Shown here: one piece after another, positions 12,001 to 18,000 of the stretch
Layout: each line of letters opens with the position of its first letter
Position numbering within the stretch: the stretch's first letter is position 1
Source of the DNA: Enterobacteria phage fiAA91-ss
Strand: one strand, 5' to 3'
Sequence record: KF322032
Length of the DNA stretch: 33,628 bases
Made by a program: the position numbers

Positions 12001-15000
12001 CCGGACAGACCGGACTTATCCATGAAGTCTGGCGACATGCGCTGAACAAAATCAGCCAGGACAAACGAAACAGTAATTATATTATCGCAGAGCTGGTTAT
12101 TCCGCCGGAGGTGGGCGGTTTCTGGATGCGTGAGCTTGGCCTGTACGATGATGCGGGAACATTAATTGCCGTGGCGAACATGGCCGAAAGTTATAAGCCA
12201 GCTCTTGCCGAAGGCTCAGGGCGTTCGCAGACCTGTCGCATGGTCATCATCGTCAGCAGTGTGGCCTCAGTGGAGCTGACCATTGACACCACAACAGTGA
12301 TGGCGACGCAGGATTACGTTGATGACAAAATTGCAGAGCACGAACAGTCACGACGTCACCCGGACGCCTCGCTGACCGCCAAAGGTTTTACTCAGTTAAG
12401 CAGTGCGACCAACAGCACGTCTGAAACACTGGCCGCAACGCCGAAAGCGGTAAAGGCCGCGTATGACCTTGCTAACGGGAAATATACCGCACAGGACGCC
12501 ACCACCGCGCGAAAAGGCCTTGTCCAGCTAAGTAGCGTCACCAACAGCGATTCTGAAACGCTTGCGGCAACGCCAAAGGCGGTTAAGACAGCGTATGACC
12601 TTGCTAACGGGAAATACACTGCACAGGATGCCACCACAGCGCGAAAAGGTCTTGTCCAGCTCAGTAGCGCCACCAACAGCGATTCTGAAACGCTTGCGGC
12701 AACACCAAAAGCGGTGAAGTCTGCCTATGACAATGCTGAAAAACGTCTTCAGAAAGATCAGAACGGTGCGGATATTCCGGGAAAGGATACTTTCACGAAA
12801 AATATCGGTGCCTGTCGTGCTTATAGCGGCGCTTTGAGCACTGAAGCCGGAAACTGGACAACCGCTCAGTTTATTGACTGGCTAGAGTCTCAGGGAGCCT
12901 TTAATCATCCCTACTGGATGTGCAAGTGTTCCTGGTCATACGGTAATAACAAAATTATTACCGATACTGACTGTGGGACGATTCATCTTGCAGGTTGCGT
13001 GATTGAGGTTATGGGCGTTAAAGCTGCAATGACCATTCGTGTGACCACTCCGAGTACATCAAGCGGTGGCGGTACCACCAGTGCGCAATTTACGTATATC
13101 AATCACGGAGCTGATTATGCGCCGGGCTGGCGACGCGACTACAATACGAAAAATAAGCAACCGGCTTTTGCATTAGGGAAAACAGGAAATACGGTTGCAA
13201 ATAATAAAGCGGTAGGATGGAACTGGGACAGTGGTGCTTATTGTGCACAGGATGGCGGAGCATCAAAAATGGTGCTGCATTTTTACACGGGTGAGGGAAG
13301 TTGTCCGGCAATGCAGTTTCTTGTGGATTATAAAAACAGGGGGATTTTTTACAGGTCGGCACGTGATGGGTATGGATTTGAGGCTGACTGGTCAGAGTTT
13401 TATACAACATCACGAAAGCCAACACCTGCGGATATTCTTGCTCTGGCATTATCAGGCGGAAGCATGTCAGGCAGCATAAAATTTATCAATGATGCCTTCC
13501 TGATTTGGGAAAGAAACACTGACTGGGCGAAAATTGGATTTAAAAATGATTCAGATGCTGATTCTGACTCATACATGTGGTTTGAAACTGGTGATAATGG
13601 CAATGAATATTTTAAATGGCGCATCAGGTCTGGCAGCACAACAAAAGACCTGATGACGCTTAAGTCTGATGCACTACGGGTTACCGGGCAGGTGATACCA
13701 TCAAATTTCAGCAATTTTGACTCCCGCTATGTCCGGGATATCCGGCTTGGTGGTGCCGCCACATACAAACCTGCGAACAATGGCATGACATGGACACATC
13801 AGGCACCGTCCGGGTGTGTATATACCGGCATTATTGTTCAGGATACCGGCTCAAACTCTGCCGATAACATTGGTGGCGTATATTACAGACCGGTTCAGAA
13901 ATACATTAACGGGACATGGTACAACGTGGCGCAGGTATAATTTATGCAGCATTTGATAAATATAACGGTGGGTAATCCAAAAACAGTTGAACAATATCAA
14001 TTGACAAAGGACTTTGATGTCGTCTGGTTTTTTACAGAAGATGGTAAGAACTGGTACGAAGAACAAAAGTATTTTGCTGATGACACGATAAAAATAGCGT
14101 ACGACAAAGATAATATCATCCGCTATGTGGAAAAGGATGTGACAGCTATCAGACCGGATGGATTAAGTGTGGTTGAAGTGGCGGATATTACTGCTAATCG
14201 ACGGGCGGACATTTCAGGGGGCTGGATGTTTAAGGACGGCAAAGTGATTAAACGCATTTATACGGCAGAGGAATTGCAGAAGCAGGCAGAAAATCGGAAA
14301 GCCAGACTTCTTGCAGATGCTGAATCCGTGATTTTGCCGCTGGAGCGCGCTGTCAGGCTGAATATGGCAACAGAGGAGGAGCGCACACGGCTGGAGATCT
14401 GGGAACGCTACAGTGTTCTGGTCAGTCGTGTAGAACCAGCAAATCCTGAATGGCCGGAAATACCGCAATAAATTGTATAAGCTCTGATGTGAGTTTATAC
14501 ATCTATGGCACAGAGTAAAAACTAATCTGACAGTTCGCTCTGTGCCAAAAGCAGAATTTACCCATTACGATTATACACCATGTAAAAAACGGTTGTTTCT
14601 TCGTCGCTCTCCCTCGCTGCTAACTTCATTAAAAAATCCTCTGCTAACATCATCAGAAATATCAATAATGTGTTTTAACGCAGAAAGGGTCTTAAATTGC
14701 TTGCTCGTTAAGGCTGACTTATCAATCGCTAATTGCTCGTCATTTACATCTTTTAAGTAAGAAAAATACTTACCCAAAAAGCCTGCGATAACATCAGATA
14801 GTTGGACAGCCTCTGAGTTGTGGGATTTAACGAATTCATGATTCTGTATTGGTATGCCATTTTCAGTTAACGGGAAGTTTTTAACTTCATCTTGAATGCT
14901 ATTTTCTTCATCAAATATGTGAATGGAATTTTTAAATAGATACAAGTTTCTTAAATAAAATACCATAAAGCTATCGATCAGTTTTCGACCATGAAATCCC

Positions 15001-18000
15001 GATATGAACGGTAGTTCTTCGATTTTTAGAGATTCTTTAACCAAATTTTTGAGTGCGTGTGCTCGAAAATCTGGTAGCATACAACTGTGCATGCATGTAA
15101 AATCGATAAGCCAGAGGCAAAAGTCATAAACTTTTTCTTCTGGAATATCGGGGTAGTTAAATTTATGTAGAGCATTCAGGAAAACATCGGAATTGCTATT
15201 GGCAAGCTCATAAAAATCGCTCTTAAGTGACATGTGGTTCATGATATAAAAAGGATTATGTAGCTCTCCAATAATAGAATCAATAATGTCAATAATAGAC
15301 CAATATGTGATATTAAGATTAAAATAATGGATGTGGAAATTGTTTTCAATAAGCCAGTTTAGAATAATTAAAAGCTTATCAGATTTAAGCATGTCCAAAA
15401 AACTACCCTTGGCAATATGACTGAGTTTTAACTCGCGGGCACTTTTTTGAAGATTAAGCTTTTTAAATAGGGTTAAATAATCGCTGTCAGTGCTTAACCC
15501 TTTGTGTAGTATTCCTGCAAGGATGAAATTATCCGCCTTTACAACATTAAAACCAGAATCTTTTAAATATAGTTTTCGAATATTATTCGTTTCATCATAA
15601 TAAAACGTATAGACTTCGTCAGTATTTTGAAGACCATTATACTTGATAAGTAACTCTCTAAGTTCAATGACATCCATTTTATTCCCCTAATGCAATTCTC
15701 AAACTAAGGTCAATTTCAGTAATTATCATATAAAGTTAGCCTAACAAACATATTAATGAATGTCTGCTATTCGCTCAAAGCAGACTGTCAGATTTGATAG
15801 CGTTTTGGCTATGTAAATTGTCAGTCGGAAAATGAGTGTGTACAAATCAGGACAGGCGGGCAGATTGCCCGCCTTTTCTTTGTCTGTTGTTTCATCCACT
15901 GACCAGCCAGGTCAAATAGCGTCTCATGCTCTGCACAACAGAAAATACCACTCACCCATTAACCACGGAGTTAAACGGATGAGTGACTATCATCATGGCG
16001 TGCAGGTGCTGGAGATTAACGACGGCACCCGCGTCATTTCCACCGTATCCACGGCCATTGTCGGCATGGTCTGCACGGCCAGCGATGCGGATGCGGAAAC
16101 CTTCCCCCTCAATAAACCGGTGCTGATTACCAATGTGCAGAGCGCAATTGCAAAGGCCGGTAAAACAGGCACGCTGGCGGCATCGTTGCAGGCCATCGCT
16201 GACCAGTCAAAACCGGTCACCGTTGTCGTGCGTGTGGAAGACGGCACCGGCGAAGACGAAGAAACGAAGCTCGCGCAGACCGTTTCCAATATCATCGGCA
16301 CCACCGACGAAAACGGTCAGTACACCGGACTGAAAGCCCTGCTGGCGGCGGAGTCGGTAACCGGTGTTAAACCGCGTATTCTCGGCGTGCCGGGACTGGA
16401 TACCAAAGAGGTGGCTGTTGCACTGGCATCTGTCTGTCAGAAGTTGCGCGCTTTCGGGTATATCAGCGCATGGGGCTGTAAAACCATTTCCGAGGTGAAA
16501 GCCTACCGCCAGAATTTCAGCCAGCGTGAGCTGATGGTCATCTGGCCGGATTTCCTCGCATGGGATACGGTCAGCAGCACCACCGCCACCGCGTATGCCA
16601 CCGCCCGTGCGCTGGGTCTGCGTGCCAAAATCGACCAGGAGCAGGGCTGGCATAAAACGCTGTCCAACGTCGGGGTGAACGGTGTTACCGGCATCAGCGC
16701 CTCTGTATTCTGGGATTTGCAGGAGTCCGGCACCGATGCTGACCTGTTGAACGAGTCAGGTGTCACAACGCTGATTCGCCGTGACGGTTTCCGCTTCTGG
16801 GGTAACCGTACCTGCTCTGATGACCCGCTGTTCCTCTTTGAAAACTACACCCGCACCGCGCAGGTGCTGGCCGACACGATGGCTGAGGCGCACATGTGGG
16901 CGGTGGACAAGCCCATCACTGCAACGCTGATTCGCGACATCGTTGACGGCATCAATGCCAAATTCCGTGAGCTGAAAACAAACGGCTATATCGTGGATGC
17001 GACCTGCTGGTTCAGCGAAGAATCCAACGATGCGGAAACCCTCAAGGCCGGAAAACTGTATATCGACTACGACTATACACCGGTGCCTCCTCTCGAAAAC
17101 CTGACCCTGCGCCAGCGTATTACCGATAAATACCTGGCAAATCTGGTCACCTCGGTTAACAGCAATTAAGGAGCCTGACCGATGGCAATGCCGCGCAAAC
17201 TCAAGTTAATGAACGTCTTTCTGAACGGCTACAGCTATCAGGGCGTTGCAAAGTCCGTCACGCTGCCAAAACTGACCCGTAAGCTCGAAAACTATCGCGG
17301 TGCGGGGATGAACGGCAGCGCACCGGTAGACCTCGGCCTTGATGACGATGCGTTGTCAATGGAGTGGTCGCTCGGGGGCTTCCCGGATTCGGTTATCTGG
17401 GAGCTTTACGCCGCAACCGGCGTGGATGCCGTGCCGATTCGTTTTGCAGGCTCTTACCAGCGCGACGATACCGGCGAAACGGTGGCCGTCGAAGTGGTCA
17501 TGCGTGGCCGTCAGAAAGAAATCGACACCGGTGAGGGTAAACAGGGAGAAGACACCGAGTCGAAAATCTCCGTGGTCTGCACCTATTTCCGGCTGACGAT
17601 GGACGGTAAGGAGCTGGTCGAAATTGACACCATCAACATGATTGAGAAGGTGAACGGCGTCGACCGGCTGGAGCAACACCGCCGCAATATCGGCCTGTGA
17701 TTTTCATCCGGTCAGCCAGGCTGACCGGTTAACCCCGATTCAGAAGTGAGAAAACCATGAACAAAGAAAATGTGATTACCCTGGACAATCCGGTCAGGCG
17801 TGGTGAGCAGGTTATCGAACAGGTCACGCTGATGAAACCTAATGCCGGGACGCTGCGCGGTGTCAGTCTGGCTGCGGTCGCAAACTCCGAAGTCGATGCA
17901 CTGATTAAGGTGCTGCCGCGCATGACGGCACCGATGCTGACCGAGCAGGAAGTCGCCGCGCTGGAACTGCCTGACCTTGTGGCGCTGGCCGGTAAGGTGG

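Follow-up and report, generated by a model that had tools for sequence, protein, structure and literature searches.

The window analysed here, the 33,628 bp of sequence record KF322032, is the complete genome of the P2-like Enterobacteria phage fiAA91-ss from cosL to cosR, and between its tail-fibre assembly gene G and its sheath gene FI lies a lone minus-strand gene for a stand-alone DUF3800 protein of 368 residues, a full-length member of the candidate defence family PDC-S51 with a predicted RNase H-like fold. The gene, horizontally acquired, is probably a lysogenic-conversion 'moron', its product is a cytoplasmic 43-kDa protein, and we lean, with some reserve, towards a functional nuclease that defends against phages or other mobile genetic elements (MGEs), a leaning that becomes much fainter for any particular substrate. 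In a preliminary description made from the sequence alone, this open reading frame (ORF), which starts with ATG, had been delimited at exactly the coordinates found here and proposed as a single-protein anti-phage candidate, possibly of DUF3800 type. That proposal has held up well: membership of the family is confirmed, the match to a single-gene PDC-S51 model is full-length, homologues sit in defence islands and no conserved partner is found. Indeed, the checks suggested at the time, by hidden Markov model, structure and PADLOC search, returned DUF3800, an RNase H-like fold and PDC-S51.

The family assignment comes from several profile libraries. An N-terminal stretch, YTFYYDETNN, had been thought reminiscent of DUF3800 by eye, and the hunch was right, with Pfam DUF3800 (PF12686) scoring 29.7 bits, well over its cut-off of 21 (E=1.3e-6), and residues 25-302 aligning to profile positions 2-147 of 149; as 278 residues are matched to a 149-position profile, about 130 of them must be extra to the Pfam core. 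All 43 homologues that we aligned also match DUF3800 (best E=1e-10). The PADLOC model for PDC-S51 (PDLC05033) is matched essentially end to end (E=2.5e-105, residues 2-366 to profile positions 4-370 of 376), and at E<=1 no other PADLOC model was returned, PD models such as PD-T7-1 included. The protein also matches phrog_15126 in PHROGs, where no function is assigned to it, and finds no match in NCBIfam. Both motifs of the published DUF3800 signature, DE...QxxD (PMC7736814), are present and invariant, as D28 and E29 near the N terminus and Q292 and D295 near the C terminus, in the 43 sequences, which range down to 35% identity; the same alignment holds F25, Y27, N31, N32, R34, H117, W126, D130, H253, D256, E258, S285 and G299 constant.

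Homologues are numerous, forming 550 clusters at 90% identity (E<=1e-3), and a profile search of 1.84 billion representatives gave 1,126 clusters at 50% identity, of which 544 reach E<=1e-30. The top 150 representatives are all single-match proteins of 264-441 residues, mostly about 350-400, that align over almost their whole length, which leaves no domain fusions among them. Comparison with four alleles from four genera gives dN/dS values of 0.14-0.24, which is purifying selection, and because of this and the 550 homologous clusters we take the ORF to be a real gene and not a chance reading frame.

An AlphaFold2 model built on the homologue alignment (pLDDT 93.8, pTM 0.91) has an RNase H-like fold, and its core is predicted to be an RNase H-like domain closest in fold to the type 2 RNases H, with fold-comparison scores of 9.0 for RNase HII (1io2), 8.2 for RNase HIII (4py5) and 8.0 for human RNase H2A (3puf), and of about 5 for RNase H1, retroviral RNase H, integrases, Argonaute PIWI, UvrC and EndoV. 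In the model, the DE pair ends a strand at residues 23-29, as in RNase HII; a strand at 115-121 leads into a helix with D130; H253 and D256 lie on a further strand, 252-256, which E258 closely follows; and a helix at 289-310 bears Q292 and D295. By their place along the chain D130, D256/E258 and D295 are candidates for the third and fourth carboxylates of a putative DEDD-type site, on which the conserved residues may converge. The residues that are extra to the Pfam core are largely helical and lie before and after strand 4, and the protein also has a helical C-terminal extension of some 70 residues; helices 142-218 and 313-366 make up the additional modules. Compared with the type 2 RNases H (HII, HIII and H2A), identity is only 7-12%, and these large helical modules are additional.

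Over the backbone of the genome, identity to P2 is 96-97.5%, and identity to a prophage of E. coli O91 strain RM7190 reaches 99.9-100% in the parts compared. The flanks of the gene align to P2 up to about 14556 and again from about 15760, which makes the intervening 1.2 kb an exchangeable cargo and places it, as had been proposed, in the fun(Z) position of P2. The AT-richness seen at first reading is also real, with a GC content of 0.327 in the cargo and 0.331 in the ORF against 0.556 in the flanking structural genes, and of 0.31 in the ORF against 0.69 in FI at third codon positions. The slot was compared in ten P2-like genomes (the window, P2 and eight more): P2 has its occupant, fun(Z), on the minus strand too, and the other genomes carry unrelated genes in either orientation. 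What this slot carries is largely unexplored; when nine of its cargo proteins were run through PADLOC, seven, Fun(Z) among them, had no match, one matched PDC-S07 and one an Aga-class restriction endonuclease domain. The exact cargo of the window is found, as a single copy, in 6 of 5,426 complete E. coli genomes, about 1,570 of which have the flanks, and a search of 50,697 deposited phage genomes did not find it, save for one 34%-identical match on an unannotated contig. A 95%-identical allele occupies the same slot in P2-like prophages of other E. coli and of E. albertii that have different tail-fibre genes.

Outside P2-like prophages, the homologues keep varied company. In Vibrio the gene lies in an integrase-bounded island, directly downstream of a PD-T7-1 homologue and with SIR2+DUF87, PLD and methyltransferase genes; in Alteromonas it is accompanied by SduA_C, GmrSD_C, DUF4365 and IS21; in Sphingomonas it sits in an integrative and conjugative element (ICE) with HEPN, NucS and DUF4365; in Pectobacterium a relaxase-bearing element has Shedu directly adjacent; in Shewanella the company is JetC/JetD and NERD; and in Klebsiella an IncF plasmid provides an AAA+HNH pair, IS110 and TPR. 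Neighbours vary across the eight contexts examined, which is consistent with the single-gene organisation. Members of the family are found on 147 plasmids, 65 of them conjugative, and distant matches (<60% identity) on Staphylococcus and Leuconostoc plasmids mean that the family crosses the Gram divide on plasmids. Two of these loci deserve a further remark. The Klebsiella copy, 85.6% identical, occupies positions 6001-7113 of the segment of NZ_CP132605.1 that was examined, by the AAA+HNH pair and IS110. The Pectobacterium element holds, besides its 88%-identical copy, a second, short DUF3800 gene (locus positions 11290-12024) that adjoins acetyltransferase and Imm63 genes; its 244-residue product has only the C-terminal S…GIQxxDxxA motif in common with the 370-residue family, and hhalign gives the pair a probability of 12%.

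How does the gene compare with what is already catalogued? It is a member of a known candidate family in a published hotspot, and is neither a Fun(Z) homologue nor a categorically new system. The G/FI locus has been described as the second defence-enriched hotspot of P2-like phages, with three validated systems plus fun (Vassallo et al. 2022, PMC9519451), the survey of Rousset et al. 2022 (PMC9122126) having been confined to the one between A and Q, and we consider it reasonably likely that the gene is one more self-contained defence gene of this second hotspot. Validated single-gene systems from P2 hotspots (a DUF4238 protein, PMC9122126; PD systems, PMC9519451) have in common with it the form of a compact moron and, presumably, transcription that does not depend on the late genes, and belong to protein families other than PDC-S51. 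Structurally, nothing separates the 368-residue protein from PDC-S51 as defined in the preprint of Payne et al. (2024), and the organisation, a single gene near or inside defence loci, is also the same. The 145 PDC candidates were predicted by 'guilt-by-embedding', from genes embedded in BREX, DISARM or type I restriction-modification (RM) loci (10.1101/2024.01.29.577857), and the P2 hotspot is a context outside that definition.

P2 Fun(Z) is a lysogenic-conversion gene that blocks T5. The preliminary description had left open whether the gene is its homologue, and this is now settled, since the best BLASTP hit to Fun(Z) (NP_046777) has E=6.9 and homology is rejected: the two occupy the same slot in the same minus-strand orientation, each as a single AT-rich foreign gene, but Fun(Z) has 528 residues and no sequence similarity to the 368-residue protein. 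Other DUF3800 kin include the effectors of type VII retrons, modelled on RNase H2 (PMC7736814), and the TPR-DUF3800 proteins encoded as accessories next to Cas12a2/a3 and at some type VI-F loci. Fold and both signature motifs are common to these relatives (PMC7736814, PMC10910872, PMC12669027) and to the protein described here, which, unlike them, comes without a reverse transcriptase, multicopy single-stranded DNA (msDNA), a CRISPR array, a TPR domain or a known DUF3800 RNA motif.

Several points weigh against a defence nuclease, and they are best taken together. The defence-island context of the homologues is correlative. The PDC systems are explicitly 'untested' in their source (10.1101/2024.01.29.577857), and for that reason DefensePredictor left the PDCs out; our own literature search gave no paper naming PDC-S51, WP_000382496 or a validated stand-alone DUF3800. 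Turning to structure, Foldseek against the PDB was not significant and a PDB profile search came back empty, the only return from the viral fold library being another DUF3800 protein; hhalign of the family profile against E. coli RNase HII (the RNase HII sequence having been verified with 7uwe_C) saw no similarity, at a probability of 0.06%, and Pfam RNase_HII does not match the 368-residue protein, so that kinship to RNase H2 is at the level of the fold only. Finally, the gene had been presumed to have its own promoter in 15690-15830, and here the presumption was not borne out: a sigma-70 consensus scan of the minus strand over 15678-15830 gave no convincing site at its threshold of 9/12.

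If the gene is nonetheless a defence gene, we would picture a protein whose synthesis in the lysogen does not depend on the late operons and whose own helical module keeps it inactive until a cue from a phage arrives, the helical modules providing sensing or autoinhibition. D28/E29 on strand 1, D130, D256/E258 and Q292/D295 would then drive metal-dependent cleavage of nucleic acid, and the RNA strand of RNA-DNA hybrids, or structured RNA, would be a plausible substrate in view of the fold and of the retron and non-coding RNA associations of relatives. Cleavage would either block replication of the invader or arrest the cell. A bolder version, which we regard as unlikely, is that of an autonomous innate-immune sensor-nuclease whose helical module would recognise phage RNA-DNA hybrids, which could be replication primers, R-loops or msDNA-like molecules, and whose RNase H2-type site would cut them. 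Were it true, this would be a defence principle not yet demonstrated for single-protein systems, and would bring under one explanation the association of DUF3800 with retrons, with Cas12a2/a3 loci and with eleven orphan RNA motifs.

Other roles have to be set beside defence. The protein might instead serve its carrier, as a nuclease that stabilises a prophage, ICE or plasmid by addiction, or that excludes plasmids and satellites, for example as a toxin under post-translational control. The mobility of the family, on plasmids (65 of 147 conjugative), ICE-like elements and a prophage, speaks for this, but no antitoxin-like small ORF or RNA is conserved beside the gene in the contexts examined, the neighbours are typically validated anti-phage systems and the slot itself holds validated anti-phage genes, so we give such a role a small chance. 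A two-part system with an unrecognised RNA partner, along the lines of a type III toxin-antitoxin pair or a retron, would fit the company kept by DUF3800 genes elsewhere, which adjoin 11 structured RNA motifs, DUF3800-I to -XI (PMC5737381), retron reverse transcriptases with msDNA (PMC7736814) or Cas12a2/a3. Rfam 15 contains DUF3800 RNA motifs, but scans with Rfam came back empty for the window at gathering score, for 14300-16100 at E<=10 and for five homologue loci. The cargo leaves room for only 82 nt upstream of the gene, unstructured on folding (z -0.15), and 14 nt after its stop codon; no reverse transcriptase is found in the slot, which holds a single ORF, or adjoining homologues in the contexts examined, no Rfam retron motif was matched, and PADLOC reported PDC-S51 only. 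An RNA partner is accordingly something we would bet against quite heavily.

Two further explanations take the fold at face value. A housekeeping RNase H, removing primers or resolving hybrids during P2-type replication, would suit an RNase H2-like fold carried by a phage, yet the cargo is present in only 6 of the roughly 1,570 E. coli genomes with P2-type flanks and is echoed by that one 34% match among the deposited phage genomes, it occupies a variable slot with foreign GC content, and most homologues live outside phages. Since almost all P2-like phages lack the gene, its dispensability for burst size and lysogeny is strongly implied, and a housekeeping role appears very improbable. The other candidate is an insertion sequence, in which an RNase H-fold DDE transposase would be flanked by 32-nt terminal inverted repeats, and a 1.2-kb unit with an RNase H-like protein of about 370 residues and inverted repeats at both ends does look the part. 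However, the arms of the repeat flank unrelated cargo in ten phages, the unit is single-copy and no transposase Pfam family is matched; we rejected this candidate, to which we allow next to no chance, because the arms are features of the slot common to unrelated cargo and because of the missing transposase match.

Why might a defence gene of this kind matter? As it already belongs to PDC-S51 in PADLOC, we see in it a good and easily tested candidate, not a new kind of system. DUF3800 is widespread, recurring beside type VII retrons, Cas12a2/a3, some type VI-F loci, BREX- and RM-embedded genes and eleven orphan RNAs, and among the papers found none reports a phenotype or a substrate for any DUF3800 member. 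A single 1.1-kb gene with its native upstream region, in a complete and apparently intact P2-like coliphage and in a slot already known for working defence genes, is the simplest test case. A positive outcome would validate PDC-S51, assign a function to a stand-alone DUF3800 protein for the first time and offer a way into the roles of its RNA- and retron-linked relatives, and a negative one would be a useful caution on candidates nominated by guilt by association.

Table 1. Features of the G/FI slot of phage fiAA91-ss (positions in the window unless a locus is named)
Feature	Position	Strand	Remarks
Gene for stand-alone DUF3800 / PDC-S51 protein, 368 aa, predicted RNase H-like fold	14571-15677	-	
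Exchangeable cargo, 1.2 kb, GC 0.327	14557-15759		replaces the ~2.07-kb fun(Z) segment of P2
Two strong conserved hairpins, G-cargo spacer	14474-14547		z -4.9 and -6.2; fold on either strand
Left arm of 32-nt imperfect inverted repeat, core AATCTGACAGT	14524-14555		backbone edge of slot
Leader, ~55 nt	15678-15734	-	z -0.15, no significant RNA structure; moves with gene between genera
Shine-Dalgarno AGGGGA	15683-15688	-	read from sequence
Weak candidate promoter TTGAGC-17-TAATAT, 8/12	15778-15773 + 15755-15750	-	by eye; below scan threshold
Right arm of inverted repeat, with local hairpin GTCTGCT/AGCAGAC	15763-15794		other backbone edge
GC-rich hairpin with T-run, intrinsic-terminator-like, upstream of pF	15854-15874	+	z -4.25; backbone
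pF late-promoter region, activator site to transcription start	15885-15955	+	aligned to P2 17555-17628; a feature of FI and no part of the cargo
Left-arm remnant after stop codon of homologue	Vibrio locus 9119-9157; Pectobacterium locus 7122-7138; Shewanella locus 7122-7138		

The immediate surroundings of the gene, collected in Table 1, are those of a cassette set into late operons, with H (11862-13940) and G (13944-14471) converging on it from the plus strand and FI, also on the plus strand, diverging from it. FI truly starts at 15979 (MSDYHHGV…), as in P2 and RefSeq, and a 445-residue FI ORF with its start at 15832 is an in-frame extension to an upstream ATG; with this start, 15760-15978 is the non-coding pF promoter region. 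The Shine-Dalgarno sequence noted at first reading is indeed there, 5 nt before the ATG, and is also kept in the Vibrio, Shewanella and E. albertii copies. From its sequence the sub-threshold element listed in the table, which spans the cargo/backbone junction, might conceivably act as the promoter.

At its edges the slot carries an imperfect inverted repeat whose two arms are complementary at 26 of 32 positions and whose 11-nt core, AATCTGACAGT, is found at just two places in the window, one per edge, in opposite orientation. By itself a match of 26/32 has modest statistical weight, the best of 30 shuffles reaching 25/32; the repeat draws its support from conservation across genomes, both arms being kept in each of the ten P2-like genomes compared, regardless of which cargo lies between them and of how it is oriented. 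What looked like compensation between the arms at one position (GCAGA/TCTGC in the window, GCGGA/TCCGC in P2) was not sustained across nine distinct genomes; the position concerned shows five Watson-Crick pairs, two G-U pairs and two mismatches, about what base frequencies predict, and therefore gives no evidence that the arms pair. The hairpins on the G side probably separate the V operon from the cargo gene that converges with it, as an insulator or a terminator, and for hairpins bracketing the slot on both sides the simplest reading would be that they insulate the moron transcriptionally against the late operons. The P2 record puts a putative V-operon terminator elsewhere, within P2's own cargo.

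The non-P2 copies preserve traces of the same edges. In Vibrio, Pectobacterium and Shewanella, DNA homology to the window continues for 34-53 nt beyond the stop codon and includes GTCTGCTTTTGGCACAG, the inner end (about 17-35 nt) of the P2 left arm; upstream of the gene, the Vibrio copy shows a faint trace of the right arm as well. These apparent scars suggest that non-P2 cassettes have at some time moved through a slot of the P2 type, or else that breaks occur preferentially at the ends of the arms. The recombination behind the rapid swapping of cargo in P2/P4 hotspots is unexplained in a 2026 preprint (10.64898/2026.02.27.708500), which does not mention inverted repeats, and neither do the hotspot papers that we found; the 32-nt repeats might be substrates of such swapping in the P2 hotspots, and insulator, recombination breakpoint and inversion substrate are all candidate roles for them.

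Elsewhere in the genome, the tin/old slot, which lies between A and cos and is the other hotspot of P2, holds cdtC, cdtB and cdtA, for a type V cytolethal distending toxin, instead of defence genes, on the minus strand at 30877-33019 (coordinates mapped from the RefSeq annotation of the identical RM7190 prophage), and low-GC segments at 30701-31700 and 32601-33600 lie in or near this region. A third, small variable locus, which in P2 lies between S and V and holds orf30, is empty, some 64 bp at 9372-9435 replacing P2's 786-bp segment. The att/int/C/cox immunity region (22670-26760), which spans a lower-GC stretch at about 22.5-24.5 kb, finds no counterpart in P2 by megablast, which means that the two phages differ in immunity type. 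Within H, positions 12393-12731 consist of tandem repeats of about 132 nt (44 residues, LSSxTNSxSETLAATPKAVKxAYDLANGKYTAQDATTARKG) that are mutually about 86% identical, and the C-terminal part of H, from about 12590, diverges from P2, as does G.

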